A stretch of 64,000 nucleotides of DNA from Klebsiella phage phiKp_32, in the sequence record LC768500.1. The stretch is one strand, 5' to 3'. Shown piece by piece: positions 6,525 to 59,040 of the stretch. The notes beneath the pieces are model-generated. The model was not told the origin of the DNA and ran no database searches. It was given only the letters and a program-made list of their open reading frames with translations. Each line of letters opens with the position of its first letter. The first letter of the stretch is position 1. The translations under genes and the position numbers were made by a program.

Positions 6525-8627
6525 GTGAAACGGAGCTTAAAGATGACTGAGACTTTTTTAAGTCCGTTTGTTGATGACGATTACAGTGCCGATAGGAATA
6601 TCGTTAAACACTATCATGAACAAATGGCTTTGTATCTTGGTAAAAAGCGCAATGAAGATCCTAAAGCTATTTACGAGGTACTTTCCAAACACATCCAGCC
6701 CAATCAAAACGGTTATAAAGATCGTCGTATGCAGGTTTTAGTAAAAAACAAGTACGGCGATAGAGAAGTTAAAGTCATGACAGCGTCTAATTTCTTTAAT
6801 GAAGTTAGACGTCAGAACTGCCATCTTAGTCCCAGTATGGTTGCTTACAAGAACACTGAAGAAGAGCAATCTGTTAATGCAATCGGGACAGAAAAATTTC
6901 TTAGTCTTCGGTCCCACTATAAAGGGTTAAAACAAAAGGCCAGTGACGAAGGTGATGAATGGGGTAAGAAGGCTTTCCACGAAATTCAAAACGCCTTGAA
7001 AATATTCAACAACGCCCAATCAGGCGCAATGTCATCCCGTGGGACCCCTCTTGTTAATAAGTCAGGTCATACTGCTCTGACTAGTGCTTGCCGTGCTTTG
7101 ACCAGTACCGCTAACATGTGTAATGAAAAGTTATTGGTCGGTAACCGATTCTTTAACTCGTACGAGCGAACGATGGAGAACTTACTGTCGTTGCTCTCAG
7201 TTACTGACATTAAGCGAATGGACGAAGTCATCAAGAAACTGAAGATGAACTACGCGACCATAGACCAGGTTATGGAAATGGTCAAACGTTGTTCTCGTCG
7301 GTATTGGAGAGACGTTAAACAACTCGGCTACATTAAAGAGTTTTTGGAGCAACTTCGTCCGGTTGAATTAACGGCTTTGCTTTGCAATATGGATATCGAG
7401 GGATTGAGGGTTACGAATAAAGAAATCCTTTATAAATTCTTTGATGACTTCTCTCATATACCGGAAGTTCCAGAAGGCGCTAAAGCTGAAGATTATACTC
7501 CACCTGATAACGGAGACCGATACATACTTTGTGTTTCTAAACTCTTAGCGAAACCAAGCAAAGTTCAGTTAAACTTTTTAAACCAGTATCATCTGGAAAT
7601 GGAACATAAATGGAAAGACTTTATTGAAGTCTTCTTTAAATGCTCCATTCCTCCATCGGGCATTTATGAAATCAGGGATATGATCCGAGAGGTAGTTCAA
7701 ACCTCAGATACCGATTCCTCGATTTACACCGTAGATAAAGTCGTAGAGGATTACACCGACGAAAAAGGACAATCGTTGAGATTGAATGGGGTTCTTACTT
7801 ACTTCATTCGAATGATAGCGGTTCATCAGCACGCTCAGTTAAGTGAAAACATGAACGTTGCTAAACGTTACCGTAATCGTCTGACGATGAAGAACGAGTA
7901 CTTGTTTGGAGGATATGTTACAACATTAATGTCAAAACACTATTTTGCCACACAGCTGATGGTAGAAGGGGTATTGAATAAAAATGTTGAAATGGAAATT
8001 AAGGGTGTACACTTAAGGAGTTCTAAAGTAGCTCATGAGATAAAGGATTTTGCACACAAACTCATGAGGGAGATATTGGATTGTATTTATGACAAACGTC
8101 AAATGGATGCAGCCGATATTCTCTTTAGAGCAGCAGAGTTAGAAAGGGCCATCATTAAGGATATCAACGAAGGCCAATGGGGTTGGTTAACACGCAACAC
8201 CATAAAAAGTGATGACGTGTACACATTGCCGGATCAATCTGTGTATCAATACCACTTACTCTGGGAAGAAGTGTTCTCTCCTAAATATGGACATGCACCA
8301 CCACCGCCCTATTCTGCTATGAAAGTTAACCTTTATTTAGGTAATAAAGGTAAGGTCGAAGAGTTTTGTAAGGATCTGGAAGACAGAGAACTTGCAAATC
8401 GTTTATTAGATTTCTTCGTTAAGAAAGAGAAAAAAGAAATCAGTACGTTCTTTGTTCCTGCTGACGTATTACCAAGATTAGGTAAATTGCCCGATGAAGT
8501 TATTAAAGCCGCCGACATACGACAGATCATTAAACAGAACTTGAAATCTGTTTACGCTGTTTTGGAAGCCTGCGGATTGTATATTGTAAACGACAAAATA
8601 ACACGATTAATCAGTGACGAGCATTAA
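6525..8627 (+). CDS. large hypothetical protein (700 aa)
   Basis: Long uninterrupted ORF; no motif recognised. Confidence 0.6.
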   Translation: MKRSLKMTETFLSPFVDDDYSADRNIVKHYHEQMALYLGKKRNEDPKAIYEVLSKHIQPNQNGYKDRRMQVLVKNKYGDREVKVMTASNFFNEVRRQNCHLSPSMVAYKNTEEEQSVNAIGTEKFLSLRSHYKGLKQKASDEGDEWGKKAFHEIQNALKIFNNAQSGAMSSRGTPLVNKSGHTALTSACRALTSTANMCNEKLLVGNRFFNSYERTMENLLSLLSVTDIKRMDEVIKKLKMNYATIDQVMEMVKRCSRRYWRDVKQLGYIKEFLEQLRPVELTALLCNMDIEGLRVTNKEILYKFFDDFSHIPEVPEGAKAEDYTPPDNGDRYILCVSKLLAKPSKVQLNFLNQYHLEMEHKWKDFIEVFFKCSIPPSGIYEIRDMIREVVQTSDTDSSIYTVDKVVEDYTDEKGQSLRLNGVLTYFIRMIAVHQHAQLSENMNVAKRYRNRLTMKNEYLFGGYVTTLMSKHYFATQLMVEGVLNKNVEMEIKGVHLRSSKVAHEIKDFAHKLMREILDCIYDKRQMDAADILFRAAELERAIIKDINEGQWGWLTRNTIKSDDVYTLPDQSVYQYHLLWEEVFSPKYGHAPPPPYSAMKVNLYLGNKGKVEEFCKDLEDRELANRLLDFFVKKEKKEISTFFVPADVLPRLGKLPDEVIKAADIRQIIKQNLKSVYAVLEACGLYIVNDKITRLISDEH

Positions 8628-8630
8628 ACT

Positions 8631-8663
8631 CTACTCCTACTCCCGATAAGGGAGTAGGAGTAG
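8631..8663. terminator. bidirectional terminator hairpin between convergent genes (TACTCCTAC family)
   Basis: ctactcctactccc-gataa-gggagtaggagtag, a perfect 14-bp stem. Confidence 0.5.
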
Positions 8664-8673
8664 ATAGTCTCGT

Positions 8674-9135
8674 TTACTCAGAAATCTGAATAAATCTAAA
8701 GATATTCAATATCTTTTTAACTATGAGGTAGTAGCTCGAATATGTTTCGATTATCTTATCTTCCGAATTAAGAAATTTCTTAAGAGATGCCAATGAGTCC
8801 TTCAGTTCTTTATCCGCCTCACCGGATTCAACTGTTTTAGAGACTTTATCATACTGTGATTTAACTTCAGGAAGACTTTTCAGTTTATTAATGGACACAA
8901 AAAACTCTTTCATGCCTTTATTGAGAGAATAGATCAACGAAGGAATTTCAGACATTGCTATGTAATCGTCGGTTCTTAAATGCAGTTTTAGCTCCCTCAA
9001 TGCCCCCAACATGGCGTGGACAGAATCACCAGAAGCTTTCATTCCAGGGATAATACGATCCCCCGAATCAAGATTTTGTAAAATAATCTTTAGGTCGTTT
9101 TCTAGGGCCTTTATTCTGGCGAAGTACCCGCTCAT
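8674..9135 (-). CDS. hypothetical protein (153 aa)
   Basis: ORF with ATGA stop/start overlap to the upstream gene. Confidence 0.55.
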   Translation of the reverse strand: MSGYFARIKALENDLKIILQNLDSGDRIIPGMKASGDSVHAMLGALRELKLHLRTDDYIAMSEIPSLIYSLNKGMKEFFVSINKLKSLPEVKSQYDKVSKTVESGEADKELKDSLASLKKFLNSEDKIIETYSSYYLIVKKILNIFRFIQISE

Positions 9136-9632
9136 TTTTTAGGGAAAGGAACGTCGTACTTTTTAAAAACTGTCAATCCTATTTCTCCTAAGCTTATTTT
9201 AGGTGAAATACTTTGGAGTCTCTCAACCTCTGCTAAAATAGCTGAACGATTAGGGAAGCCTTCATCTCGTTTAATCGCGTCTATCATTCTGGGATAGACC
9301 CTTTGAGCTATTTTTAGATCGGAACTACTTAAGAATCTTTCGATATCAGATTTTAATGAATTAGACTGTTTCTCTATTTCGGATTTTTTCTGTTCGGGTG
9401 ATTTAGAAGAAAACCATCCGAAGATCTTTTTAAATATCCCTTTAATATATTCCCAGGCTTTCTTTATTCCGTCCGAGACGGTATCTACAAATCCTTCGTT
9501 ACCCGAAACGAACATCCGGCTTGGTTCGTTAGCCCAGAGTACACCGCCTAAGTAACGTGAAGCATACGTTTCATTTCCGCTAACGCGGTCATACAACCCG
9601 TCGAAGACGAGTTCAATGTGATCGTTGTTCAT
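9132..9632 (-). CDS. hypothetical protein; its N-terminal ~72 aa are paralogous to 42341-43117
   Basis: MNNDHIELVFDGLYDRVSGNETYASRYL... is near-identical to the N-terminus of the 42341 protein; AGGAAA SD upstream. Confidence 0.6.
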   Translation of the reverse strand: MNNDHIELVFDGLYDRVSGNETYASRYLGGVLWANEPSRMFVSGNEGFVDTVSDGIKKAWEYIKGIFKKIFGWFSSKSPEQKKSEIEKQSNSLKSDIERFLSSSDLKIAQRVYPRMIDAIKRDEGFPNRSAILAEVERLQSISPKISLGEIGLTVFKKYDVPFPKK

Positions 9633-11013: not shown

Positions 11014-13026
11014 ATGTCCGACAATCAAAATGGCAACAACTGGGAACAAACCGTCCTGAACACCGCTGCTGGTAAAGGAGAGCCGATCGTCTCTGCTTCT
11101 GCCGAGAATTTCGGTTCTCAGCTGCTCGGTCTGCTCGGCCAGGCTTCTCTTCTGGGTTCTTCCAAGAACGTGCCGGAAGTAGAAGAAACCGCGGCTTTGA
11201 TCAAGAAACGCGTAACCGATCTGAAAAACGGTACGCCGGGCGAAACCCAGAAGAAGATCCTGCCGGAAGTGAACATCATCACCAAACCGATCATCTCTGC
11301 ACTGCCGGGCATCGTGCTCTCCCTGCACATGAACAACAACCCTGCGGTATACGTCATGCCGGTGCTGTTCTCTAACCGTCATCTGACCAATACCCTGGAA
11401 GAGATCCAGATCGACAACGGCGTTAACCAACAGCGCAAAATGTCCATGCCGTTTACCCCGGATTCCTACGCTCGTGCTGATCTGTTCGAACAGATCAAAA
11501 TGCACTACAAAGCGATGCTCCAGGATAAAGGTGTGAGCGAATGCGTGATCATCAACGTGATGGTTATCGACCTGGAACAGATCGTTGGTGACGATGTCCT
11601 GAATCAGGGCAAATCGCCGCTGCTGCGTGATGAAATCATGCGTAGCTGGGAACAGGGTCTGATGGTACAGATCGCAAAAATCGCAGCTAACCAGCCGAAA
11701 GCATCTCTGCCTTCTCCGTTCTCTGCGACCGGCGGCAAAGCGTATGGTCAGCACGGTAATGCGATTGCTCGCGTTGAACCGATCCGCGGTCAGTATGTTA
11801 ACGAAGGCCTGCTGTCTCCGGCTAACCTGACCATCCGCATGCAAACTGCTAACCATAACGGTTATCAGGGTAATGCTGAGCAGTCCCGCGAAATCGTCAA
11901 CACCTACGCGACCGTTAGCCTGATGGGTTCTCCGATCCAGCAGTTCAACCCGCAGCTGACCGGTAACATTCCGCAGCCGTACCTGCAGACCCCTAACGGT
12001 CGTCCTCAGGGTTACACCCCGCTGCAGCCGATCGTTATCATGAACCACGCTAAAGCTGGCGAGGTGCTGGGTGATGCAACTGGTCTGTCGACCTACTTCA
12101 TGGGCCTGTTCTCTCTGATGGCGACCAACAGCAACTACCTGTTTGCTGAAGCTCTGCGTTCTAAGAACGTAGGTTCTCGTGGCTCCCTGACTGATATGGA
12201 ACACCGCATCCGTCAGATGGAAAATGGATTACCTCCGCGCACTAAGGGTACTGAGATGACCGACGCTAAACTGTCGGATATCGATTTCACCACTAACTGG
12301 ATTCGCGCCAATATTGGACCTAAAGCAGTCTTTGCTGCTGACCTGATCCAGTTCGGCCCGGATGCGGCAATCTCCAACTTCCTGTTCAACCTCACCTCCG
12401 GTGCGAAAGACTACAGCAAATGCGTGAAAACCGTTATTGCTATCGTCGATTCCATCTCCGGTGATGCGAAAGCCATGTCTGCGGTTATCGCAGAAAACCA
12501 GGCCAACAACAATGGTAACGGCGGATGGATTCCGGGTAAACCGGTACTGCACGTTTCTAACGCGCTGATCCCTGTCGGTACTGCTGTACTGGATAACAAA
12601 CGCATTGCGCTCGGCGAAGTGGACGAGATGTTCCTGTCCAAGCACTACAAAGATCAGATCACCCCGATGAACCAGTACCTGGAAAACATGTACGGGTCTA
12701 ACCCGAACGTGCCGGAAAAACTGCGTCGCTATAACCTGCTCATCCAGCTGTCCACCATCTTCTCTGAAGGTGTAAACCTGTTCGGCTTCGCTCGTCGTTG
12801 CTACTGGGATCCGCTGTTCATGGATGCGTTCACTAAAGCGATGAACACCATCGGTTCTCTGCAGGTTACTGGCTCTATGGGTCAGTTCGCTGCTAACGTT
12901 CAGGTCTTCGCTCCTGGCCAGCAGTATATCTCTCAGGCAACTGCTGGTAACTCCGGTGGCGTCGTTCTGGGTAACGGTATGATGCTGGGTGCAGGTGGCG
13001 GTCTGGTGTTTGGCCCGTCCTACTAA
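11014..13026 (+). CDS. chmA: candidate chimallin (ChmA, phage-nucleus shell protein; 670 aa); alternative is another abundant structural protein
   Basis: Strongly host-optimised codon usage and size of about 73 kDa; sits downstream of phuZ. It directly precedes the nvRNAP beta' N-terminal gene, as phiKZ gp54 precedes gp55. No diagnostic motif is known to me. Confidence 0.45.
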   Translation: MSDNQNGNNWEQTVLNTAAGKGEPIVSASAENFGSQLLGLLGQASLLGSSKNVPEVEETAALIKKRVTDLKNGTPGETQKKILPEVNIITKPIISALPGIVLSLHMNNNPAVYVMPVLFSNRHLTNTLEEIQIDNGVNQQRKMSMPFTPDSYARADLFEQIKMHYKAMLQDKGVSECVIINVMVIDLEQIVGDDVLNQGKSPLLRDEIMRSWEQGLMVQIAKIAANQPKASLPSPFSATGGKAYGQHGNAIARVEPIRGQYVNEGLLSPANLTIRMQTANHNGYQGNAEQSREIVNTYATVSLMGSPIQQFNPQLTGNIPQPYLQTPNGRPQGYTPLQPIVIMNHAKAGEVLGDATGLSTYFMGLFSLMATNSNYLFAEALRSKNVGSRGSLTDMEHRIRQMENGLPPRTKGTEMTDAKLSDIDFTTNWIRANIGPKAVFAADLIQFGPDAAISNFLFNLTSGAKDYSKCVKTVIAIVDSISGDAKAMSAVIAENQANNNGNGGWIPGKPVLHVSNALIPVGTAVLDNKRIALGEVDEMFLSKHYKDQITPMNQYLENMYGSNPNVPEKLRRYNLLIQLSTIFSEGVNLFGFARRCYWDPLFMDAFTKAMNTIGSLQVTGSMGQFAANVQVFAPGQQYISQATAGNSGGVVLGNGMMLGAGGGLVFGPSY

Positions 13027-13097: not shown

Positions 13098-16000
13098 GTG
13101 AACGGAGACGTTATGGATCAGTACGGTGATCGTATTATTGATGCATTAACAGCGCCTGAATTTTCATCATTGCAACCAGAGGCTCAGTTTAAAACTTATG
13201 CCGAACAATACGGTGGTGACCTTTCTGACGACAAACGTTTTTATGAACCCCTTTATCCCGACTTCACTGACTATAACCGTTTGCATGATACTGCTAAGGT
13301 CGATCCGGTTTACCTGAACGATTTCGATTTTTGTTTGGAAGAAGACCGAGAACGAATCGCATCTTTGATTCGTATGGACTTCAACACCGACACATTCGAA
13401 ACCGTCGCGAGATGTAGCTGTGGGCATCTGAAGGGCAACTATTTGTTGGGTCAGAAAAGATCATGTCCCATCTGCCAATCCCTTGTAGAGAAAGTCGTAG
13501 AGACTTCCTTAGATACTAAGGTATGGGTCAGGGTTCCAGAAGGCGTAGTTGGATTTATCAGTCCGGCTTATTACAAAACCTTCTTATCGAAGATCGCGAC
13601 TAATTCTCCAAAGATTGAGATCGTGACTTGGCTCATCGATCCGTCTTATCGTCGGGGAAGCCGAGCTCAGCATACTGAGTCTGGTCGTCGGATGTTGGCT
13701 GAACTCGATAAACTCGGAATAGTGCCCGGGCTTAACAGCTTTATATTGAACGCGGACAGATTCATGGAACACTTCCTTGTTGGTGAAGGAAGAGGTGCCG
13801 TGAGCATGAAGCCGGCTGATGGTAAAAAGCATTTGGATAAGTATTACGAATATCGTCATCTTATCTTCCCGCGGTACCTGTCCGTACCCAATAAACTCGC
13901 TACCATCATCGAGCAAGATGGTAAAGATAAGTACGTTTCTTCAACCCAATTGAAAACCTCGGCAATCTACCAATCTATTGCAGATACGAGAGATTCTACT
14001 GAGTTTTATAAATGTACGATTAAGGACCTTAAAGAGAACGCTGATATCGTCGGGAAGGCGATAGTTCGATTAGGTAAACAGAACTCTGATAACTATAAGA
14101 GTCAGCTGTTTGCTAAATCGAGCCTGATACGTAAACACGTAATCGCGGGATCATTATCTTTATCAGGTCGTGGTGTTATCACATCAACGACTGGATTACA
14201 TGATGCCGGTGTTGCTAAGATACCTTGGATCATGGCAGTGGCTATGCTGAAGAAACACATCCTGGGATATCTTTACCGTTTAGGGTACAGCCCCCTGAAA
14301 GCCGAAAGTGTAATCAGTACAGCAGCACACCAAGTCGTCCCGGTAATCGATCAATTCTTTACCAAGCACGAAAAGCAAAAAGACATTGTCTGCATTTTAG
14401 GAAGAAACCCATCAATTCAGTACCTGTCAGCAAAAGCCTTCTTCATGTCGATCAACCGAGATTTAGAAGACGAGTCGATAAACTTACCAATACTCTCAGT
14501 TAAAACCTTTAATGCTAAATCAAGAAGTGAGAGTTCCATACTTTTGTGAGAGAAAGCATGAGAACTATTGAGTTTGAAAGAACACCACGTGAAACAGTAC
14601 TTTTTGAAGAAGACGGTTGGGCTCATCACCCGACTATCAAAAACATCCTATTAAAGGAGAAAGGAAACACTTATCGTTTATTTACCGACGGTAAATGGAA
14701 CGAAGTTATTCCCGAACAAAAATCGAGATACATTTATGTATCCTTTGGCGGGATAGAAATACCCCTTCATCAATTAAAGCTGGAAACCTTTTTAGAAAGA
14801 CCAGCTTCTACCGAAGGACTTAAATTGTTAGGCAATCATATCGATGGTGATATCTTTAATAACGACATCGATAACCTTGAATGGGTGACCTACAGAGGAA
14901 ACATCATTCATGCCTATGAATCAGGATTAAGATCAGATAATAAGCCGTTGGTTTTGGTCGATTTACATTCAGGCGAGGAATTTCCGTTCTATAGCCTAAA
15001 TGAATGTGCTAGATATCTGAAACTTAACCCCTCTAAGATAACCCAGTTTTTGAGAAAGAAGAGAAGTTACCCATTCCAGTGGAAATACGATTTCAAACTA
15101 GATGGGTTGTCTCCTAATAATCTGACCTCTAAAGACGTTGGTAAGGCATCGCAAAATAAACCAAGACCTTTTATTATGCGAAACATAAATACCGGCGAAG
15201 AAAGAGAACTTGGGCTCTATCGTTCGATTAGAAGAATTTGGGGCGTGTCGGAAAGAACTCTCCAAAAAGTTTTAAGCGGTAAAATGAAGATAGATGATGT
15301 TTGGGAATTTGTGCCGATTACTGATCCCGACAGACTTATCCATCTTTCTAATACACTGCCAGACATAAAGGAGGCGTTTGATACAACTTCTAATAGAAAA
15401 AATATGGCGGCTAAAAAGTCTAAAGCGATTAAAGTAACGGGTCCTGATGAAACCACGTTCTATTCGTCTATTAAAGACTTTTCACAGAAAAACGGATTCA
15501 ACGCCGCAACCATACAAAAGTTTATTTATAAGAACCCGGGGAAACCCTGGAAGAATTATGTTATCACGTATGTTTAACTCTCACTTCTTTGGCCCAGTAG
15601 ACGCGAAAGCTCTGCTGCGTACTCTCTCTAATTGCTGGAAACTCCTAAAGCTCGTTCACCTCGTATAGAGGGGTCGAAAGACAGAAACAACGAACGAGAT
15701 ATCTCACGCTAACCAATAATGCTAAAAGATAAATAATGGGTTACCTAGCAGCGAACCCTACCTCGGTAGGAGACGTTCAACGACTAGAGCTGAAACGCTC
15801 GTAGGATCCTAGTGTGGATCCGAAATGGGAGAGGACCTAAGTTTGACAGTAGTCAAATATGGTTAAGATATAGTCTGTGCCCTCAGGAAATCTGAGGGAG
15901 GGTGTCTCAGCACACCTGCTCCATATGGAACGGAGTGGACAATCAGGATTTTGACGGTAAACGTATTGCCGCCTAGCTTAGTAATGAGTTAGTGAATAAG

Positions 16001-27463: not shown

Positions 27464-30400
27464 ATGGCAGAAAAATTTGTCTATAAGAAACCCATAAACC
27501 AGCTTAAACCAGAGTTGATGTCTATCAATATTAACTTGAACTCATTTCCCTGGTCGGTTTCATCGTCACGTCAATATATGTTGGGTGGTAACGTAGCTAA
27601 AGCAGTTTCCATACAAGGGGCGTCGACAAGACGCAATCCTACCGGCTTCGAACCAGAATATGCTAAGTACGCTCGTAAAGTCGTAGCCCCGTCAAACATG
27701 ACTGTAGAGAGAACATTTTATCAGCGATCTCTACAACCCGGTAGCAATCTTGCAGATGATTGGGCGGAGATCCACGTTATCTTCTTTAATGAAGAACACC
27801 AGCTTTATGATCTCTTAACTATTCCACGATTTAATACGCAGAATACTTACGTTGGGTTTGAGTACAAACTTAACAAGGATAACCTTCGTAAACTCAGTAC
27901 AGAATCACCGACCTTTAAGAAAGGCGATGTGTTTGCGTATTCTCCAAATATCAGCGATACTGGAGAGTGGATGTTTGGTACTGAGGCGATGGTTTGTGGG
28001 ATGACCGCACCTTATACCGAAGAAGACGGCATTGCTATTACTGAGAGCTTTGCTCGTAAGCTGACCAGCATCTTCCAGCATTCTCGTAAGTTCTCCTGGA
28101 ACGAAGCAGAGTACGTCCCCCTGAATCTTTATGGAACATTAGATTCCCCACGACCGTTCCCTGAGAACGGAGAAAGTATTCGTAGTGACGGCATCGTCAT
28201 GGGATTCCGTAGACGTGACACTTCGAGCGCTCTGGTGGGCTTAACCAAAAAAGCACTCATGCGTCCTGATCAAACTTATGATATTCTTTTCTACGCACCT
28301 AAAGATTGTGTTGTTAAAAATATCTCCGTCAAGTCAGATCGTTATAAGAACGTTTCCAATAACAAACGTCAGGAGAAGATTACTCAGCCTCACACTCAGT
28401 TGCTGGAACGTTATGAACAGCGCTCTAACCAAATGGCGTTTGAGGTCCAGGAGTGGTATTACCGGATGGATGCGAAGTTTAAAGATTCCGATCTTCCTTT
28501 CACCCATGCGCTCCAAGAGTTCATCTCTAAACAGTTAGGCGACGTCACTAAAAACTTCGCTACCGGCAAGTATAACCAGGTCAAGCGAACTCACCGCAAT
28601 AAGGCGCTTTTGGATTGGAACGTCGAGATTACTTTAAAGGAAAGAGTCACTGCGCGTAAACGTTTTAAAATTACCGACACTCAAGGTGCTTCGCCCCACA
28701 AGTATCCGTTATCTTAAAATGATGTTGGGGTTGTAAAGACTTTTTGAAGGAGGTCTTTATGACGGTGAAATTGATAGGAAATCCCGATATAGAAGTAGAC
28801 TTACTCGAAAAGTCTTTATTTATAAAGGGAGAAGAAATTATTGAAGGGAACGCCTTCCGAGTAGATTTATTCGGTGGAAGTTTCCAAGTGACACGGGAAT
28901 GGCTAATCTCGTTCGCTCGTTATAACTTGGATATCCCAAAAGAGCATGTCGATAAAATAACCTTTATTCGATTTGCTAAAACATGGTCTCCGTTTCGTAA
29001 AACCAATAAGCGATACGAAATACCCGTCTTTGACGAACCTATGGTTTCTGAAGACGGATACGCGATCATACCAACCGATTTTGAATATGAAATTAGTCGG
29101 GAAGGAGTTATTAGAAATCGTAAGACCAAACGAATCGCTCCATTGTACGAGAAAGACTACCTTTTTTGTTCGCTAAAGGGAGAGGAAAGGTTACATCGTA
29201 CTGTGGCTCTTGTTTGGTGCTATAACGAGAACTTCGAAACACGACCGATTGTTAATCATAAAGATGGAAATAAGCTTAATCCTCACGCAGATAACTTGGA
29301 ATGGTCATCGTTTTCTTTAAACGCAATTCATGCGTTTAAAGAAGGGCTTAGGGATGATAATAAGCCTTGTGTGATGAGGAACATCTTTACCGGAGAGGTT
29401 ACTGAGTTTTATTCGGTAAGTGCCGTTGCTTATGAATTCGGACTAGGATTTGAGTCAGCCTTCGCGTACCTTAAACGTAAAATGCGGCAATCCCCTTTCA
29501 TGAAAGAATATGAGTTTGTGTTGAAAGGAGATCCTTGGGAAATTCCGTTGGGCGGTATAAAGGGAGTAAGAGGGCGGTATCTCTTCACTATAGAAAAACC
29601 AAATGGTGAAGTGGTATACCGGACCAATATCCCTAAAATCATATCCGAATTCAAGTTATGGAATCTCCCGAGTTGGTCGAAGGATTGCGTTGTAGAAAGG
29701 ATGAAGGAAGAACATCCCGATTGGTCGATTTCTGTTATTGATTACTTTAGGGCGGGCGAGTATCAGGTCAAAAACCTACAAACCGGAGAAGTGATCGATT
29801 TCGTAAAACCCGCCGAAGTATCCGGGTTGATAGGCGTCCCTCGTCAAACCATTAATAAGTGGTTAACCGAAAAACAATTTAACGTCAATCACAACGGTTG
29901 GGTATTCAGGGAGAAATCATCTTCTGAATGGGATGAGGTTTTCCCGAAACCCAATTCTAAGAAAGCGGTATTGGTGACCGACATCAATACAGGTAAAGTG
30001 TCTGAGTTTGAATCCGTAATAGCCGCGGCTTCTCACTTTGGTATTAACAAACGTTCAGTGGGTAGAAGGATACTATCCGGAAGTCTTTTCGAGAGCAAGA
30101 AGTTTAGTTACAAGCCCCAACATCCTTCATAAGACATTTGATATTTGTGAGACAGGGCCGGCTAGGCACGAAAGTCCTAGACCGTTATCTCTTTGAATTG
30201 CTGGAAAAACCACAAAAGTCTGATGCCTGCTTAGCAGGAGGGGATAACCCGGAAATAAGTTCAGACCTGACCTATGCTAACCAATAACGCTAAGGGTCGT
30301 TAAAAAGGGTGGATCAGCAGCGAACCCTACTTCGGTAGGAGGCGTTCAACGACTAAGGCCTAACCAGCCTGTACTGGAGACATGATGTTTCTGGGAAGTG

Positions 30401-31400
30401 GAGAGAGACCTAAGTTCGGCTCTAGCCGAATATGGTTAAGATATAGTCTGTTCCCTAATAACACTAGGGCGGGTGTCTTCGCACACCGGGTTCCACGATG
30501 GAACTGGACAAAAAGAAAGGTGTAATCGTTCACATTATACCCGATGCTAACGCACCGCGATACGCCGATGGACGTCGATCAGAAGTCATTATTAACAATA
30601 CTCCTGCTTTTAGACGCCAGATCTTTTCGGCGTTAATAGAAGCTGGGGTTAACTTAATAGGCTTGGAGATCGAAAACAGGATCAGAGTTCTCGTTGCTCA
30701 AAATGGAGGGTATAAGAAAGCTTATCAGGAGCTCATTAAGTTTTATCGTTCTACCGCTCCGGAGTTCGCTGATATCGTTGATACCGCTCTCCCCACGGAA
30801 GAAGAACAATTCGATCACGTTGACTTTGTGTTGAGTGATAAGATCTCTGTTCAGCGTCGAAGCGACACTCAGCTGTATGGCGCGGATATTCTGAGATTGA
30901 TGCGGGAAACCTATCCGGATATCAAACCTCAAAAGGCAATTTACGTTAACGAGCTCGGTCAGGAAATCACCACCATGTTCCCTGTCAGTATCAGCAGCAT
31001 GTATTACATCCTGCTTGATAAGTTCGGTAACGATATGAGTTGCCAGTCATTCCCTAAGCGTAACGTGTACGGTCTGCCGTCTAAGTTGAATCATGGCGAT
31101 CGTTATAGGGATTGGCACCGCGCTCAACCAGGTCGTAATATGGGTGAGGCAGAATCACGTCAGAAAAATACTCAAATGGGGGGAGAGGAAGTTGTAAGGC
31201 AGTTGGCGGCAGCTAACTCCCCTTACGTTTGTATCATGATGACGAAACGTATTATTCGGGCTGATAATCCGTTCCGAATTAAAACCATTATTAAACCTGA
31301 AGAGTATGCGATGAGCCGATCTTTGGGAATGACGATGAATTTACTCAACGACGCGGGTTATACTTTACGTAAGGAAAAAGACAGTGATCTTACTTCGTGA
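27464..31400 (+). CDS. multisubunit RNAP beta-like C-terminal subunit, interrupted by a group I intron. Predicted exons 27464-28690 and 30516-31400, about 703 aa
   Basis: MTAPYTEEDGIAITE matches beta MPWNGYNFEDSILVSE. The junction TQGA|KGVIVHIIPDANAPRYADGRRSEVIINNTPAFRRQ matches [20 protein letters not shown]…VLNPLGVPSRMNIGQ. MYYILLDK…DMSCQSF and LGMTMNLL match the beta C-terminus. Confidence 0.55.
28691..30515 (+). mobile_element. group I intron with HNH homing-endonuclease ORF; paralogous to the 14517-15946 intron
   Basis: Core at 30270-30515 is about 75% identical to 15700-15946: aaccaataaYgctaa, cagcgaaccctacYtcggtagga, gttcaacgactaRg, gacctaagtt, aatatggttaagatatagtctgt. The 3' end uggacaaaaaG parallels uggacaaucaG. 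Confidence 0.55.
28744..30132 (+). CDS. HNH homing endonuclease with NUMOD-like repeats (intron-encoded)
   Basis: VNHKDGNKLNPHADNLEWSS HNH motif; three repeats NIFTGEVTEF…, NLQTGEVIDF…, DINTGKVSEF…. Confidence 0.7.
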   Translation: MKEVFMTVKLIGNPDIEVDLLEKSLFIKGEEIIEGNAFRVDLFGGSFQVTREWLISFARYNLDIPKEHVDKITFIRFAKTWSPFRKTNKRYEIPVFDEPMVSEDGYAIIPTDFEYEISREGVIRNRKTKRIAPLYEKDYLFCSLKGEERLHRTVALVWCYNENFETRPIVNHKDGNKLNPHADNLEWSSFSLNAIHAFKEGLRDDNKPCVMRNIFTGEVTEFYSVSAVAYEFGLGFESAFAYLKRKMRQSPFMKEYEFVLKGDPWEIPLGGIKGVRGRYLFTIEKPNGEVVYRTNIPKIISEFKLWNLPSWSKDCVVERMKEEHPDWSISVIDYFRAGEYQVKNLQTGEVIDFVKPAEVSGLIGVPRQTINKWLTEKQFNVNHNGWVFREKSSSEWDEVFPKPNSKKAVLVTDINTGKVSEFESVIAAASHFGINKRSVGRRILSGSLFESKKFSYKPQHPS

Positions 31401-42280: not shown

Positions 42281-42340
42281 CGCATTATCCTCCAGTCCAA
42301 TCGGGCTGGAGGATAATATGGATTAATTAAAGGACATCGT

Positions 42341-43117
42341 ATGAATACTGAACACATTGAACTCGTCTTCGACGGGTTGTATGACCGCGTTAGCGGAAAT
42401 GAAACGTACGCTTCGCGTTATTTGGACGGCGTGATCTGGGCCAATGAACCCAGTAATATGTTTGTTTCTGGTAACGAAGGGTTTCTCGACAACGTCTCTG
42501 ACGCTATTAAGAAGGCTTGGGAATATATCAAGAAATTCCTTGCTTCCATTAAGGAAAAACTTTCTTCCTTTTTTAAGAGTAAACGAATCGAAGAATCCGC
42601 TAAGAAAGTTGACGAAGCTTTGAAAAGCAACGACTTCGAAACATCTCCGGAAGTCAAAGAAAAAATCGACAAAACATCTAAGAAAATAAAACAGATTATC
42701 AGCGTTTTAAATTCTGTATCTGAAGATGTTGATACGATGAAAAGTTACGTCAAGACGGATGATTTACTTTCTAAACTTATTCATCCTTATGTTGACGTGC
42801 TGGTTTCAGAGAAAGATCGTTTAGCTAAATCTCTTGAGATTATCGACGAAAAACTTAAAGATAAAGTAACGAAAGAACTGTTGATGAAATGTCGCAGCGC
42901 ACTTGATGGAATGAAGGGGTTCTCTTCCAAATACGTCATCGCTACTAATGCTTTAGATTTCATCATTTCAAATGTCGAGAAAGCTCCTGAAGCGAATAAA
43001 GAACTCACGGCAGCAAGAATCAAGGCTATTAAATGGACTCTTAGAGGATTGGATATTCTAGGAGAACAGATTGTTGTTGCTGCCAAGTTGATAGAACAAA
43101 TTCCAAAAATAAAATAA
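42341..43117 (+). CDS. hypothetical protein; N-terminal module paralogous to 9132-9632
   Basis: MNTEHIELVFDGLYDRVSGNETYASRYLDGVIWANEPSNMFVSGNEGF…; aaagga SD. Confidence 0.6.
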   Translation: MNTEHIELVFDGLYDRVSGNETYASRYLDGVIWANEPSNMFVSGNEGFLDNVSDAIKKAWEYIKKFLASIKEKLSSFFKSKRIEESAKKVDEALKSNDFETSPEVKEKIDKTSKKIKQIISVLNSVSEDVDTMKSYVKTDDLLSKLIHPYVDVLVSEKDRLAKSLEIIDEKLKDKVTKELLMKCRSALDGMKGFSSKYVIATNALDFIISNVEKAPEANKELTAARIKAIKWTLRGLDILGEQIVVAAKLIEQIPKIK

Positions 43118-43125
43118 CCCACGAC

Positions 43126-43163
43126 ATTACTACTCCTACCGCTAAGGCGGTAGGAGTAGTAAT
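43126..43163. terminator. bidirectional terminator hairpin (TACTCCTACC family) between convergent genes
   Basis: Perfect 17-bp stem attactactcctaccgc-taag-gcggtaggagtagtaat. Confidence 0.5.
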
Positions 43164-46297: not shown

Positions 46298-46696
46298 ATG
46301 TCACATTTAGCCCACACCATCACCCTGAAGAGCAAACTCTTAGAGTTGGGGGTTACCGACCCTGCGGATCAAAAACGTATTGTTGAGAACGCTTATGTTC
46401 GTGCGCTGGTAAAATACCTGTTTACCTACAAATATGTTTTCTCCGGATACACCGAAGAAGTCGAATCCAATATTTACCGCCGTCTGGCCAAGTGGAATGA
46501 GATCTCGCCTATTAACGGCCCTTTCATTGTCGAGAAACTCAAAGCGATCGTTCGCAATCTGAAAAACGAAGCGCTGGCTGGCGGTCAGTTCACCCCAATT
46601 AAAAATGCGAACGAAACTTTCGATGAACTGAGTTCGGAAGAGTTTATCAAATTGATGGACTGGTTGTTCGGAGAGATGGTGACCGGTAATGACTGA
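46298..46696 (+). CDS. hypothetical protein (132 aa)
   Basis: agaggta SD upstream. Confidence 0.5.
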   Translation: MSHLAHTITLKSKLLELGVTDPADQKRIVENAYVRALVKYLFTYKYVFSGYTEEVESNIYRRLAKWNEISPINGPFIVEKLKAIVRNLKNEALAGGQFTPIKNANETFDELSSEEFIKLMDWLFGEMVTGND

Positions 46697-48194
46697 TAAA
46701 AAAGATCCTGTTGTTACCACCTATCCTTTAATTGGAGAAGGTGGTAAAGTGGTCCCGGGAGACCAAGAAGAACAATTGATCGATCTCGACGCCGCCTACA
46801 AGAAGACAGGTGAAACGAAAACCAATGAGCTTGTAGAAGGCCTGGAGCGTTACATCAACCAAAAAATTCTCGGTAAACGGGAAATGGAATTAGCTGGAGT
46901 TAAAGGAGGGGAGAATTTCGATCCCCTCCCATCCAGACGTAATGCCGTGTTGGGAGGAGAATCTTTCCTCACCGCTGTAAAAGACGGTTTTTTGAAGATC
47001 ATTGATTTCATTATCAAGTTTATCAAAGGCGCCGTTAACTGGGTTATCGAACGCATTAAAGTCTTACTGGGCTTTAGTAAGACAAAGGCCGAGATTAAAG
47101 CCTGCGAAGACGCCAGATCTGATATGGAGAAAGAGGTCAAATCCACCCTGTCTGGATTCGGAATCAACCCTTCTTTCTACAGCCTGGATCAGCTGGTTGA
47201 ATCAGCGCCTCGTGGTATCGATCGGGTCGAAATGATTAAATACCTTTCAGCCAAATCTAAAAACGAAACCGAGATGGCGAAAGCACTCACTGGCGTTATT
47301 CCTGACCTGACAACACTGACCCGTAAGTTAAGAGATTCTTCCGATAGCTTGACTAAACGGTACAAGCGATTCAAAGTTGTTCTGGAAGACACCCGTAAGA
47401 AATTGGCCGCTAATAGAGTTGGAGATGCTGACGCTTACGAGCTGTCTAAAGCCATCAAAGACGTCATGGTCATTTCCGAAGACTATGGAGATGTGGTCGC
47501 TTCTTTGTCTGCGGTTGTATCTAAACTGTATGGGGTTAATCTCGATGACTCTAAAATCCTTAAAGAGGGATTTGGGGTTTTACGAGAAAATATTGCCCGA
47601 AATCGTGCGGTTGCAACCAGTAAGCTCAATCCGGAAAAACTGACTGGTCTTTACGCGGAAATCGGAACGTTAAATAACCGGATTATTTCTGAATCGGGTA
47701 ATACGTTCGATTTATCTCACGTCGACACTAAAGTTCTAAAAGAAGTGGTCTCTTTGGATGACGCCAGTTTCATCAATAATTTATCTGATGTGGTCGGTAA
47801 TCGTCAACTCATTGCAGACTATCAGGCTATGGCTGTTTCCGTCAGGGACTTTACTGCGATTCTGGAATCGTCTTCTGCTATTTGTGCTGATATCTCCCGT
47901 GAAATCGCTAATTTCACTAAGTGGAAAAACAACGTAGATATGTATCTCGCCGTAGCGGTTACGGAAGATCTTAAACTGATCGCTTCTACACTGATCGCTT
48001 CTGCGGGAGCCGGGGAATATGATCTCGACAAGTTAGGTAAGAGCAAACCTGTTGTTCTACCTGAACCCGGCCTGGTCAAGAAGACCGGTTTGATCACCCA
48101 GGAAATTCTCGACGCCGATCTCCATGGTGTTACTACCGCTGTTAACAATTTTGCGAAAACTGCGGGACTCAACGTGAGGGTTAAACCACGATGA
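46689..48194 (+). CDS. hypothetical protein (501 aa)
   Basis: Long ORF; start overlaps the stop of the previous gene. Confidence 0.55.
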   Translation: MTDKKDPVVTTYPLIGEGGKVVPGDQEEQLIDLDAAYKKTGETKTNELVEGLERYINQKILGKREMELAGVKGGENFDPLPSRRNAVLGGESFLTAVKDGFLKIIDFIIKFIKGAVNWVIERIKVLLGFSKTKAEIKACEDARSDMEKEVKSTLSGFGINPSFYSLDQLVESAPRGIDRVEMIKYLSAKSKNETEMAKALTGVIPDLTTLTRKLRDSSDSLTKRYKRFKVVLEDTRKKLAANRVGDADAYELSKAIKDVMVISEDYGDVVASLSAVVSKLYGVNLDDSKILKEGFGVLRENIARNRAVATSKLNPEKLTGLYAEIGTLNNRIISESGNTFDLSHVDTKVLKEVVSLDDASFINNLSDVVGNRQLIADYQAMAVSVRDFTAILESSSAICADISREIANFTKWKNNVDMYLAVAVTEDLKLIASTLIASAGAGEYDLDKLGKSKPVVLPEPGLVKKTGLITQEILDADLHGVTTAVNNFAKTAGLNVRVKPR

Positions 48195-48871
48195 ACGAAA
48201 CCCTAGAAAAATTGCTGAGTAACGCGCTGACTCACGATAGTGATTGGGAAGGCGACGCTCAACAATTTAAAGAAGGCATAAAGGAGATTCATCAGCTCCT
48301 GGAACGTCGACTGGATGCCAAGCTTCTGATGGAAGCTCTCGCTTTCTTCGACGCGTGTGAAGAAACCATCATCGACGTAAGAGCCAGGATGGTGACTGGT
48401 CCTTCTAAAGTCAATAACGATTTATTCTATAATTTCTGTAAATTTAAATATACACAGAAAATCATGGGAATCTCGGTATTGGCGGATGGCGTTTTAGTCG
48501 CTAAGGATTTCGATACTGCTATTGGTGCGGTGGTTGATGATTTGTTTAAATCATTTAATCAATCTACTGATAACGATCGTTTCCATAAAGCGATTTGTCT
48601 TCGTCGTGATGTGAAACGACTTAAGATCGCGTTGGAAGATCCTTATACCTTTAACCTGGGTGTGGATTGGACAGCCATTGAACCGAAAGAAGATTACATC
48701 GAAGACTCTACCGATCTTGATTTCTTGAAAGCATCGAGAGAACGTCTTGCTGTTAACGAAACGTCTTACGAGTTCTGGGCGATCGAAAATCGTATCCGTC
48801 AAATTACGTCGGAGAACTACATCCGTCGTTCGTTCTTAGAGCGTCTTGGTCTTTACTACAAAAAAGATTAA
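48191..48871 (+). CDS. hypothetical protein (226 aa)
   Basis: ATGA overlap with the upstream gene; gaggg SD. Confidence 0.55.
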   Translation: MNETLEKLLSNALTHDSDWEGDAQQFKEGIKEIHQLLERRLDAKLLMEALAFFDACEETIIDVRARMVTGPSKVNNDLFYNFCKFKYTQKIMGISVLADGVLVAKDFDTAIGAVVDDLFKSFNQSTDNDRFHKAICLRRDVKRLKIALEDPYTFNLGVDWTAIEPKEDYIEDSTDLDFLKASRERLAVNETSYEFWAIENRIRQITSENYIRRSFLERLGLYYKKD

Positions 48872-48877
48872 TGTTAA

Positions 48878-48910
48878 ATACTCCTCCTACCCTAGGGTAG
48901 GAGGAGTATA
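48878..48910. terminator. bidirectional terminator hairpin (CTCCTCCTACCC family)
   Basis: Perfect 15-bp stem atactcctcctaccc-tag-gggtaggaggagtat. Confidence 0.5.
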
Positions 48911-48912
48911 GT

Positions 48913-51828
48913 TTAGGATTTATGCAATTTAAAGTTTAAAGTAATATCTTCAGCAATTGTCAACAACGTGTTATTGTTGTTGTTCAACACTTTACGAATA
49001 CTGAACCCAGTTGTAGCGTCTTTGTTACTAATGACATCGATGCTAGTAGACCCTGCAAACGATTCCAGTTTTATATCAACCACATCGTCACCAGAAATAT
49101 CTTTAAGTGCGGAGATAAGACTGGAGTTAGAAATGGTTGAGTTGGCCAGCATGTTGTTGATAGTCTCAGGATATGTGTTAGCGAGACTGGTCTGCAGCGC
49201 GTCCGACTCATACCCATTTTTGGTTAAGTAAACCGTAATGGAGAAACTGAGATCGCTCCTAATCGTCGTTTCGATATCAGCGTTGATGATGACATCGATA
49301 TTCCCGATCTTAGCTTTAGGAAGAAACTTGACTTTGGTTTCGTCCAGGCTTCGATTGTTAATCGCTGTCATATCTTGCTTGATATTATCAGTCAGATAGG
49401 TTTTGGTCGACTCATCGAAATCTTTATCGTACGTATCGGTCGTGAAGAAGTAAGAGCCGTCAAACCCTAAGAAGTCGAAGCTGTACTGCAGCTTCCTAGG
49501 TTCAACTTCTACGTTGTTACCGTCGGCGTCTTTAACAAAATCGCCGATGAGATATTTGTACGTCGGATTACCTTGAGCATCCAGAATAGGGTCGCCTTTC
49601 TTATGCAAGAAGATCGGAAGACCATCATTGCCTAAAACCAGTTTCCCTTCGTCATCACGCTGAGGATAATCTTTATCATAAGTATCCGGAACGTTGTAAG
49701 TGTACTTCTGATAACGCGCGTCGCCAGTGATCGGTCGGATACGAGTGTACATGTAATCGAGGCTCTGCCCCAGAGTAATGTTCCACTGCGTTTCGATAAT
49801 CGCTTGCATATCAGCAGAGAAAAGACTAGAGGCGATTTTGTTGTCGCTATCTGATCTGTTCGTTGCATCATCAGTAGTTTTAAGTAGAAGGAAACTGAAT
49901 GCGTTAGTCAGACTACTTGGGATATTATTTGCGTCCGCGTCGTACTGAGTCAGGTTGTTAAGATAAAGCAAATCGTTGTTATCGATGTCAAAGTTGCTCG
50001 ATAATACAAACTGCCAAATCCTTTCACCGGAACTGTTGACCCCTACCAATTCACCCTTAACAGATGCGAGCGCTGCTGCGTTAGCTGGGGTGAAACAGAG
50101 TTGTGCTCCGACCTCACTATCCTCCAAAGCCTTGTACTCTTTACCAGACTTACAAACAAGAGTAAAGACGTAGCCCGTTTTCGTTACGGAGACGTTAATA
50201 CTTGATACACCGAGCTCTATCCCCAGGTTGGTGTTCTCGTATAAGAATCTCTGGTAGTTGCCGGTAGGAGAATCCATCCGGTACATTCTTAACGACGCTT
50301 GATTGTCGGTAAGATCCATGACGTAATGGAACGGAGTGTAAACCAACGCATTCCCATTGACATAGTTGGAAATAGCCTCAAACCCGGAATTCTGGATAGC
50401 GGTTAATTCCGTTAAGGGAACTATCCTGGTCGTCGTTTTCGAAATATCGAATACCGTCCTGCTCGGTATAGTGATCCGTTCGCCATTGTCAAACACCATT
50501 CCTGTCGCTACCAGATCTTCGGCACTTTGCAGAATCGATCCGATGTAGGTGTTCATGCTAGAAACCATCCCGTCTTTATTAGACTGAGCGGGAAGATCTC
50601 TGGACGCCTTGTACAGACGATTGGTGATGTAATCGATAGACAGCACTTCGTCGTAACCACGATCCTCAATATTGTAAGAATATTGATTAGGGGTGATCGG
50701 CAAACTGTCTCGGCGATTACCGTAGATGGCCGCCCGACGAACACTTTCAAAACTACGAGGATTCGCCCCACCCGTTACGGCGTTCACGGTAATCCAGGCT
50801 TGGTTATTCGCTTCCAACAACGGCGAGGAGTATACGCCCAATTGGTTGTTGTCGTAATTATAGTCGAGATATTCCGGTGTGTGATCCGCAACACTAATCG
50901 TTTTAAGATCCTGTTCGTAATAACCGACTGTCGTATAAACGTACAACGCGATCTTACCTACGCCCAACCCACTCGTTATGTAAGCAACCGGAACTTCATA
51001 GGTAAACGAACCGTTATCATTATCCAGGGAGATGACCAAAGTCGGTACAGTCGTATCGAAGTTGGCTTTGTTGTAGCTAATAGCCATCTCGGCAGTACTG
51101 CCGTCTGAATAAGTGATAAAGGCACGGATGGCGTAAAGATAGTTACTGAAATAAAAGGTGTCTTTAGCCAAGCCGGAGGCTGCCGTTGTCGCGATATTGA
51201 ACTTAGGTGTGTTGTTCAATTGACGAACAGGAACGAGGATGCGGAGGAACTTAACGTTGCTGATAACAACGTAGTCGGTATCCAGTACGTTCTCTGAAAT
51301 TGGATTGAGCGGATTGTTGACAGTTGAATCATAAACAACGCTATGGCCGCCATGTTCCATTAAACGAATTTCGAAACCGTTTTCAATACTGAAGTAAGTG
51401 GAGTTAACCAGAATTCGAGTATCTTTAGGAACCAGTAGTTTCCGATATTTGTTTACTACCGCGCCATCTTCTTCCTGGTATTCGACAGCCAGACGTTTTA
51501 TCTCACTCACTGGAATAAGATAAGCCATCGTTGTACTGCTAGGAACACCGAGCAAACCGTACCATTCTTCGTCAGATAGATTACGGCTGAGATCAGACAT
51601 GTTCCTCGCCTGGTTTTTATACATCTGAGCGGCTGCGTCACTATGTCGGCTCAGCAGTGTATACGCCTCACCCACGATCATATCCATAGCCGTGATAAAT
51701 GGATGTGTGGGGCTGTTAAAGGCGATGTTTTTACCTGACCATGCTTCTTCGATCATGGAGAGTACGTTAGGAATAACTCGAGTGGGGTTATTCGATATTT
51801 TTTCTAAGTCGGAGTAGGAATAACTCAT
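48913..51828 (-). CDS. large hypothetical protein (971 aa), possibly virion structural
   Basis: Long ORF; no motif recognised. Confidence 0.6.
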   Translation of the reverse strand: MSYSYSDLEKISNNPTRVIPNVLSMIEEAWSGKNIAFNSPTHPFITAMDMIVGEAYTLLSRHSDAAAQMYKNQARNMSDLSRNLSDEEWYGLLGVPSSTTMAYLIPVSEIKRLAVEYQEEDGAVVNKYRKLLVPKDTRILVNSTYFSIENGFEIRLMEHGGHSVVYDSTVNNPLNPISENVLDTDYVVISNVKFLRILVPVRQLNNTPKFNIATTAASGLAKDTFYFSNYLYAIRAFITYSDGSTAEMAISYNKANFDTTVPTLVISLDNDNGSFTYEVPVAYITSGLGVGKIALYVYTTVGYYEQDLKTISVADHTPEYLDYNYDNNQLGVYSSPLLEANNQAWITVNAVTGGANPRSFESVRRAAIYGNRRDSLPITPNQYSYNIEDRGYDEVLSIDYITNRLYKASRDLPAQSNKDGMVSSMNTYIGSILQSAEDLVATGMVFDNGERITIPSRTVFDISKTTTRIVPLTELTAIQNSGFEAISNYVNGNALVYTPFHYVMDLTDNQASLRMYRMDSPTGNYQRFLYENTNLGIELGVSSINVSVTKTGYVFTLVCKSGKEYKALEDSEVGAQLCFTPANAAALASVKGELVGVNSSGERIWQFVLSSNFDIDNNDLLYLNNLTQYDADANNIPSSLTNAFSFLLLKTTDDATNRSDSDNKIASSLFSADMQAIIETQWNITLGQSLDYMYTRIRPITGDARYQKYTYNVPDTYDKDYPQRDDEGKLVLGNDGLPIFLHKKGDPILDAQGNPTYKYLIGDFVKDADGNNVEVEPRKLQYSFDFLGFDGSYFFTTDTYDKDFDESTKTYLTDNIKQDMTAINNRSLDETKVKFLPKAKIGNIDVIINADIETTIRSDLSFSITVYLTKNGYESDALQTSLANTYPETINNMLANSTISNSSLISALKDISGDDVVDIKLESFAGSTSIDVISNKDATTGFSIRKVLNNNNNTLLTIAEDITLNFKLHKS

Positions 51829-52859: not shown

Positions 52860-52887
52860 TATTTATTTCCAAAAAAGAGGAACGACT

Positions 52888-54878: not shown

Positions 54879-54889
54879 GGGAGTTCATT

Positions 54890-56693: not shown

Positions 56694-56701
56694 GAGGTAT
56701 C

Positions 56702-57676: not shown

Positions 57677-57713
57677 TAAGTTTTACATCAAATCTCTCTA
57701 GAGGATTTAAATA

Positions 57714-58979: not shown

Positions 58980-59007
58980 TCCCTCGGGATGGTTGTTTAA
59001 ATCAAGA

Positions 59008-59040
59008 GAGGGGAGTCCTTAGGGGCTCCCCTCCCTATTT
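59008..59040 (+). terminator. rho-independent terminator
   Basis: gaggggagtcc-ttag-gggctcccctc followed by cctatttt. Confidence 0.5.

Follow-up and report, generated by a model that had tools for sequence, protein, structure and literature searches.

How do two genes that face in opposite directions, and whose products are 87% identical over residues 1-63 and 16% identical beyond, come to carry an identical run of DNA at their 5′ ends? The question is raised by genes A and B (winA and winB) of Klebsiella phage phiKp_32, which were analyzed in a stretch of 64,000 nucleotides of the record LC768500.1 (hereafter the window), and whose shared N-terminal module had been noticed in an earlier reading of the same letters (the original prediction). 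The analysis suggests an answer that we consider probable: A and B would be old paralogues of a divergent sub-family of phiKZ-like internal head (inner-body or ejection) proteins, with the module representing the propeptide region and with gene nucleotides (nt) 13-68 having been homogenised by conversion. The genes and the repeated segments are the following.

9132-9632, minus strand: gene A (winA, BEH89636.1), 166 aa, the module and the N-terminal half of an internal-head-protein-like body
8674-9135, minus strand: gene A2 (BEH89635.1), 153 aa, C-terminal half of the family member that A begins
42341-43117, plus strand: gene B (winB, BEH89670.1), 258 aa, the module and a helical body
9442-9632, minus strand: copy A of the shared module, a 191-nt arm covering aa 1-64 (repeat search, pairwise alignment)
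42341-42531, plus strand: copy B of the shared module, a 191-nt arm (repeat search, pairwise alignment)
9565-9620, minus strand: copy A of the exact tract (gene nt 13-68), 56/56 identical
42353-42408, plus strand: copy B of the exact tract (gene nt 13-68), 56/56 identical

The phiKp_32 proteins BEH89636.1, BEH89635.1 and BEH89670.1 are identical to the products of the open reading frames (ORFs) A, A2 and B, respectively. A shared N-terminal module in two distant, opposed genes, as originally predicted, was recovered: both ORFs are present, and their module copies form the sole long inverted repeat reported in the window, 191 nt in length with 83% identity and 32.7 kb apart. The further statement that the first ~75 nt are almost identical had to be narrowed, since the match is exact for 56 nt but extends from nt 13 to nt 68, with four differences in the first 12 nt. 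Nor do the two proteins diverge completely after the module, as had been claimed; the BLASTP alignment of A and B reaches residues 1-97, and remote similarity goes on, with the family hidden Markov model (HMM) aligning winB up to position 283. The 38-nt core of the exact tract has two exact occurrences in the window, against 0 expected from shuffles. Codons 5-22 are identical at 18/18 positions, where codon usage predicts 7.0 (P ~1e-8; P 7.6e-7 by the empirical rate of the remaining module), whereas in codons 24-64 the same codon was found in 16 of the 35 positions with the same amino acid, against 15.6 expected, indicating that synonymous sites are saturated there. The synonymous identity of the tract is thus far above that of the flanking homologous sequence, as in a conversion tract, and gene conversion, one of the sources originally suggested, offers the best explanation of the exact 56 nt. 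The original prediction had also taken DNA identity no higher than the protein would predict as a sign of old paralogy; this does not apply to nt 13-68 but does apply outside them, where codons 24-64 are saturated.

phiKp_32 is a nucleus-forming jumbo phage related to Miami, and its nearest database relatives are Klebsiella phages Miami, YC1 and KPN8, Raoultella phage VB_ZK_P1 and Stenotrophomonas phage BUCTxx100. For the comparison, 17 genes of the A or B type were taken from no fewer than 11 genomes or contigs. From nt 145 on, substitutions sort by paralogue type, whereas upstream they do not, and informative sites in conflict with the A|B split amount to 20/33 in nt 1-141 versus 3/36 in nt 142-216 (Fisher P 6e-6). 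Synonymous divergence in codons 5-23, 24-46 and 47-64 was 0.08, 0.23 and 0.19 for A-A, 0.25, 0.39 and 0.42 for B-B, and 0.17, 0.41 and 0.53 for A-B comparisons, respectively, so that in codons 5-23, with A-B below B-B, variation is no longer structured by paralogue identity. A and B genes are mixed in each of the two main haplotype groups, T27/A31/G57 and C27/G31. The haplotype of winA and winB is private to that pair, and the two copies of VB_ZK_P1 (ZK_A and ZK_B) are identical to each other as well; zero-difference pairs account for 2/4 same-genome pairs versus 2/68 A-B pairs from different genomes, though with same-genome differences of 0, 0, 8 and 6 this comparison contains four pairs only. 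The nearest winB orthologue (LgB), which is 95% identical overall, differs at 6/56 tract positions versus ~4% elsewhere.

The saturated synonymous sites in codons 24-64 show that the A/B paralogy is old, and the split-conflicting sites, which lie almost all in the propeptide-coding part, point to short-tract gene conversion. Selection on the protein has preserved an old paralogy, over which a recent homogenised patch lies. The best reading of the sequence comparisons would be that paralogues have repeatedly exchanged sequence through conversion or recombination of short tracts, within the propeptide-coding part only and with a recent event in phiKp_32, and exchange probably occurs among co-infecting phages too. 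The direction B to A is weakly favoured, in that the nearest A-type relatives bear the other haplotype, but two A-type copies (A116 and A004) fall in the C27/G31 group. Three observations weaken the argument for conversion somewhat: nt 13-68 are unusually alike in all 17 copies, two of the four same-genome pairs (those with 8 and 6 differences) are unhomogenised, and selection on hairpins within the tract could explain part of its similarity. The hairpins are predicted at these positions.

9595-9613, minus strand, and 42360-42378, plus strand: predicted 8-bp hairpin, gene nt 20-27 with 31-38
9577-9588, minus strand, and 42385-42396, plus strand: predicted 4-bp hairpin, gene nt 45-48 with 53-56

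Nucleotide-level selection alone, in which two functional hairpins would keep the 56 nt alike with no transfer between the paralogues, is the alternative that survives best, though we regard it as unlikely. The 56-nt tract folds with a minimum free energy of -17.8 kcal/mol (z -2.2), pairing is kept in 98.4% of cells across the 17 genes with three cells broken, and compensatory double changes occur at 27/31 (U-A in eight sequences, C-G in seven), at 21/37 (A-U to G-C, in LgB) and at 48/53 (C-G to U-A, in the B-type copy B119). Three such pairs were reached by 2/500 shuffles, a figure that refers to 17 closely related sequences, and three single changes keep pairing via wobble. Both stems are also intact in the divergent homologue A004, and the synonymous divergence of codons 5-23 is two to three times lower than elsewhere in every comparison class. 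Protein-constrained pattern scans added a single copy, from metagenome contigs, and nothing from genome or viral contigs, so the covariation set stayed at 17. A clade-specific structural constraint is therefore plausible and would account for the low synonymous divergence of codons 5-23. However, of the 11 third-codon positions left unpaired in the tract, 10 vary across the clade, yet winA and winB agree at every one of them, and neither this identity at free sites nor the mosaicism at nt 87-141, beyond the hairpins, is explained by structure. Haplotype groups that cross paralogue type and an A-B divergence under B-B argue in the same direction, a Logan genome tolerates eight differences between its two copies, and no comparable fold was found in the distant homologues of phages EL and RisingSun. 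No Rfam family matched at the tract hairpins. A wider idea, which we hold to be doubtful, is that the tract is a selected structured element, a portable adaptor that regulates the mRNAs or serves as a recombination landing pad, with new cargo being pluggable behind a capsid-targeting leader and moved between loci or phages.

What the conserved module might do was approached through its relatives. A word-indexed protein search with the 74-aa module gave no match, whereas 114 clusters at 50% identity emerged when 1.84 billion representatives were scanned by HMMER with a profile of the module, most of whose representatives have 280-370 aa with the module close to the N-terminus. In the 111-member alignment only G19, G44 and E46 are invariant, and H5, D15, E21 and Y27 are conserved in at least 90% of the members, which identifies two G-x-E motifs as the core of the module. 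Among the PHROG families, number 21850 (function unknown), which contains Miami gp279, EL gp165 and RisingSun gp5, was matched by winA (E 2e-25) and winB (3e-20) over the N-terminal part and by Miami gp279 (2e-40) in full length, and a weaker match was obtained to 5750, 'internal head protein'. Within IMG/VR, phage EL was the sole relative of gene B. The connection to the internal head proteins of the PF12699 family was obtained through RisingSun, where gp68 and gp69 reach 38 and 45 bits, respectively, with the family HMM. RisingSun gp68 is a full-length, bona fide PF12699 protein (172.5 bits), and an hhalign comparison of the family with it gave 94.6% probability (E 6.5e-8) over 74 columns spanning the module itself, so that homology to a bona fide member is detectable by profile comparison. 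The full module is borne by RisingSun gp5, gp71, gp72 and gp73, of which gp71-73 lie in the RisingSun head cluster adjoining gp66 and gp68; all four were found by lysate mass spectrometry, and the EL counterpart of gp5 has been reported from EL virions (PMC6034870). The A/B family is thus most likely, as judged from these profile matches, a distant branch within the phiKZ-like internal head proteins. The window itself contains the following relatives.

55383-56693, plus strand: canonical phiKZ-type internal head protein (PF12699, 178.9 bits)
57714-58979, plus strand: second canonical internal head protein (PF12699, 165.3 bits), with a 'G-L-E + helix' motif at aa 131-171
60537-61877, plus strand: intermediate paralogue with the second module half only (VSGME-AGFVDTVKAGIAKVVDTIK; module HMM E 1e-8, family HMM E 2e-12)
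46689-48194, plus strand: intermediate paralogue, virion structural protein, PHROG 14541, with the motif VLGGE-SFLTAVKDGF

The two canonical proteins are encoded in the head-gene cluster (46689-62672), where the combination of G-x-E and helix is present in four genes besides A and B; in at least three genes other than the canonical pair (46689-48194, 59040-60131 and 60537-61877), the half consisting of G-x-E and an amphipathic helix stands alone. PF12699 members together with genes that have the motif only indicate that phiKp_32 holds a graded series of internal-head-protein paralogues. The two G-x-E motifs of A and B are placed as follows.

9570-9578, minus strand: first G-x-E motif (G19-N-E21), copy A; G19 invariant and E21 conserved at 90% or more in the 111 members
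42395-42403, plus strand: first G-x-E motif, copy B; modelled as a loop between helices 3-17 and 23-34
9495-9503, minus strand: second G-x-E motif (G44-N-E46), copy A; predicted maturation cleavage site, invariant in the 111 members
42470-42478, plus strand: second G-x-E motif (G44-N-E46), copy B; within a low-confidence segment, residues 37-50

Both motifs fit the prohead-protease site S/A/G-x-E, and the second lies between the N-terminal region and the helical body. A MAFFT alignment of 15 sequences (A, B, Miami gp279, EL gp165, six from RisingSun, SPN3US gp53/gp54 and phiKZ gp93-95) revealed S/A/G-x-E in the E46 column in 15/15, in the form of GNE, GSE, GTE, GME, GCE, AQE, ARE, SLE, SQE or STE, with this column aligned to AQE-125 of SPN3US gp53 and SLE-156 of phiKZ gp93. 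In SPN3US, gp53 is cut at AQE-125 and AQE-95 by the prohead protease gp245, as determined by mass spectrometry, and the PF12699 paralogues gp53 and gp54 have identical N-terminal 15 residues at 34% identity overall, which has been likened to the capsid-targeting sequences of T4 (PMC5694885). In phiKZ, the N-terminal regions of gp93 and gp162, which are released by gp175, remain bound to the inner capsid surface, and the helix-rich parts of both proteins were assigned to the inner body (PMC11297242). The AlphaFold2 (AF2) model of winB, with a mean predicted local distance difference test (pLDDT) of 78.5 and a predicted template modelling score of 0.74, has short helices at residues 3-17 and 23-34, a disordered segment at 37-50 (pLDDT <50) that holds G44-N-E46, and then a helical bundle, being all-helical after residue 48 (helices 48-79, 82-94, 103-124, 127-171, 178-214 and 220-256); the helix-rich body that is a trait of PF12699 proteins is thus present in the model. 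The best fold match of winB was Miami gp279, and the BFVD fold search returned mostly members of the own family. From sequence and model together, we infer that the module begins with a propeptide for capsid targeting, goes on with a cleavage site and ends in the helix that comes first in the mature protein, and, by analogy with SPN3US and phiKZ, the products of A and B may be packaged into the head and cleaved at E46.

Several points speak against a place among the internal head proteins. The gathering score of PF12699 (27 bits) is missed by winB (22.3 bits, E 9e-5) and by winA (13.7), as well as by Miami gp279 (15.3 bits), and only 5/111 family members match PF12699 at E<=1e-3. The family HMM gave no significant direct match against phiKZ gp89-97, and EL gp165 is annotated as hypothetical only. 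Genes A and B lie outside the head cluster, whose canonical members are located at 55.4-59.0 kb, and since KPN8 has neither A nor B, both are dispensable. In addition, the mapping of E46 to the SPN3US site depends on a remote alignment, and fold matches to known virion proteins beyond the family are weak (E 0.03-0.14, TM 0.3-0.4). A sequence search of the PDB with the family profile yielded coiled-coil noise only; its list includes a weak profile match (E 3.5e-4, positions 59-319) to PDB 11fg chain Cj, a 934-aa 'PVC protein gp65' that might be a phage head or portal-vertex component, with a score close to that of the coiled-coil noise.

The position of the two genes could suggest that the module is some other address label, for example one that brings proteins into the phage nucleus or associates them with it, or one for another compartment. 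Gene A lies two genes away from the chimallin gene (11014-13026), the homologue of the annotated nuclear shell protein of the jumbo phage Miami, and neither A nor B is in the head cluster. We consider this quite improbable, as the module has a homologue in the N-terminal part of an abundant, bona fide internal head protein, the residues invariant in the module coincide exactly with the protease motif, and the module genes gp71-73 of RisingSun lie within the head cluster, near gp66/gp68. Under the preferred reading of an internal head protein, residues 1-46 would be a propeptide directing the protein to the prohead as it assembles, possibly through binding to the capsid's inner surface, the phage prohead protease would cut after E21 and E46, and residues 47 to ~72 would give the mature protein its first amphipathic helix. 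The module would have to fit a conserved assembly machinery, which in this proposal explains its near-constant protein sequence, while the helical cargo behind it would diverge and be swapped, split or lost. Conversion of a short tract would have homogenised gene nt 13-68 within a recurrent exchange limited to the propeptide-coding part, and the small pair of RNA or DNA hairpins may add a constraint at the nucleotide level.

Turnover of the cargo can be followed at both loci. The features of locus 1 are given here.

8667-9418, minus strand: cargo cassette of locus 1, 752 nt, a replacement when compared with Miami, VB_ZK_P1 and the Logan relative; missing in KPN8 along with the module
9132-9140, minus strand: A/A2 junction, CCT AAA AAA TGA, with an ATG overlapping the stop

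Locus 1 holds a single gene of 329-332 aa in Miami, YC1, BUCTxx100, VB_ZK_P1, a Logan metagenome genome and SKEH01000004.1, while in KPN8 nothing was found at this locus and no module was detectable anywhere. Local blastn revealed similarity to the relatives at 8000-8666 and from 9412/9419 on, with 92-96% identity on both flanks, and the replaced 8667-9418, which has no counterpart in these relatives, covers all of A past residue ~72 as well as ORF A2; modular recombination, the third source named in the original prediction beside duplication and conversion, is therefore supported at locus 1. A tblastn search with A2 gave no homologue in 50,697 phage records. Nevertheless, A and A2 align to positions 13-154 and 190-328 (E 4e-9) of the family HMM, respectively, and when fused they form one domain over positions 13-327 with 179 bits. 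An extra A in the A6 run of the junction, or a -1 slip of the P-site Lys-tRNA there at the stop, would give a single protein of 319 aa. Since the A6 run is identical in the Logan run DRR406566, a sequencing error is unlikely, and A/A2 may be a real split or a case of translational coupling or frameshifting.

At locus 2, the module arrives with a complete cassette.

42283-43127, plus strand: B cassette, consisting of a hairpin (42287-42316), a leader and gene B; present here, in VB_ZK_P1, in the Logan genome and in several metagenome contigs

The B cassette is absent from Miami, YC1, BUCTxx100 and KPN8, in which locus 2 runs from a gp011 homologue through a shared terminator hairpin to a convergent 573-aa gene. 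The downstream hairpin (43128-43162) is the sole one that Miami has between the convergent genes. In the hairpin at 42287-42316 (plus strand), the base of the stem (ATCCTCC...GGAGGAT) is conserved, whereas the upper stem and the loop are wholly different yet complementary in VB_ZK_P1 and the Logan relative. winB and VB_ZK_P1 gp57 are only 49% identical. A further B-type copy, B117 (Logan ERR12726581, contig L015; 71% nt identity to winB), is preceded by a 148-aa gene (1-447) unrelated to the gp011 homologue, and the B cassette thus occurs in at least one other context. The family ranges from 0 to 2 copies, and its cargo turns over while the module persists. In phage EL, gp165 lies directly after gp166 (contig L008, 3098-5920), a 940-aa 'DarB-like antirestriction' protein, a position that fits the idea of ejected, defence-related head proteins at these loci.

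Had one gene been duplicated recently and then diverged very fast except at the 5′ end, the exact 56 nt and the 191-nt repeat at 83% could result, and a recent duplication had been proposed in place of ancient paralogy. We find it very improbable, and as a whole-gene event it is ruled out by the synonymous saturation of the module outside nt 13-68 (16/35 in codons 24-64) together with orthologues of both copies: those of gene A occur in at least six genomes, and gene B has them at its own locus in VB_ZK_P1, in four metagenome contigs and in a Logan genome, with substitutions from nt 145 on that are specific to B. With orthologues of each copy at the same loci elsewhere, in a family of 114 clusters, the ancient paralogy that had been set aside is restored. 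An assembly chimera or mis-join that produced a false second copy, against which the original prediction had warned, has next to no probability and is refuted, as both copies are in intact ORFs with differing flanks, VB_ZK_P1 and Logan ERR12379737 carry both genes at the same two loci, and the Logan assembly of run DRR406566 (possibly phiKp_32's own reads) matches at 921/921 nt, its contig merely ending within the 56-nt repeat.

With regard to the surroundings, gene A has as neighbours the gene of a divergent family-B DNA polymerase (6525-8627, PF20286) and a 370-aa gene that is annotated as virion structural protein in Miami, while gene B sits before the 573-aa gene, a 'ribonuclease' in the Miami annotation. 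A scan for sigma-70 promoters and terminators was uninformative for a phage of this type, and no mention of phiKp_32 was found in the literature.

Two group I introns were observed elsewhere in the window, at 15572-15898 and 30118-30469 (both plus strand), with RF00028 scores of 58.6 and 51.3 bits, respectively, above the Rfam gathering threshold. Their shared 3′ core accounts for the direct repeats 15747-15883 and 30316-30456 (86-95% identity). Each intron start coincides with the end of an ORF that carries a homing-endonuclease-type domain, with a weak HNH_3 in 14546-15577 and NUMOD1 in 28744-30132.

If the preferred reading is true, residues 1-46 (or 1-72) would be a compact leader with clear limits for loading proteins into the head of a Klebsiella jumbo phage, which could be useful for engineering. 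Turnover of cargo behind a fixed leader, with the cargo being swapped, split, inserted at a second locus or absent across the relatives, marks these cassettes as candidates for ejected proteins of host takeover or anti-defence. Concerted evolution confined to the propeptide-coding part of a paralogue family is documented here, and such conversion could explain the identical N-termini of paralogues in other giant phages, e.g., SPN3US gp53/gp54.

Compared with known systems, the homogenised segment resembles gene-conversion tracts between dispersed paralogues in having an exact tract within diverged sequence, a discordant genealogy and a private within-genome haplotype. It differs from usual concerted evolution in that the tract is very short (56-62 nt), inverted and 32.7 kb from its partner, and in that a possible structural constraint confounds the signal. 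On the protein side, A and B share with the PF12699 proteins (phiKZ gp93/94/95/162/163, SPN3US gp53/gp54 and RisingSun gp66/gp68) the S/A/G-x-E site, the conserved amphipathic helix and the helix-rich body, and they likewise belong to a paralogue family with several copies, the number of which differs from phage to phage (PMC5694885). The pattern of shared N-termini and diverged bodies is that of SPN3US gp53/gp54, and canonical PF12699 members are also found in the window. Unlike these proteins, A and B are shorter (166+153 aa and 258 aa versus ~420-550 aa), their residues 1-40 (HIELVFDGLYDR.SGNETYASRYL) are specific to the sub-family, and they are sub-threshold, lie in variable, dispensable cassettes outside the head cluster and are known here from sequence. 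PHROG 21850 is the family itself, from whose 330-350-aa type the bodies of winA/A2 and winB differ, winA being split. The module may further be likened, by inference, to the short N-terminal peptide that directs the varied cargo of T4 IPI, IPII, IPIII and Alt to the prohead and is removed by the protease after Glu (PMC5694885). Unlike the T4 targeting sequence, which is 10-20 residues long and has another motif at which gp21 cuts, the module is not a member of that family, there being no sequence relationship; no similarity to the targeting sequence of the T4 internal proteins (IPs) and Alt turned up in the searches made, none of which was aimed at T4, and the comparison is functional only. 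The IP loci are hypervariable among T4-like phages. A and B are unannotated, sub-threshold members of a divergent sub-family, in a kind of system that is already known, and this leaves current understanding in place while extending a known design to that sub-family.

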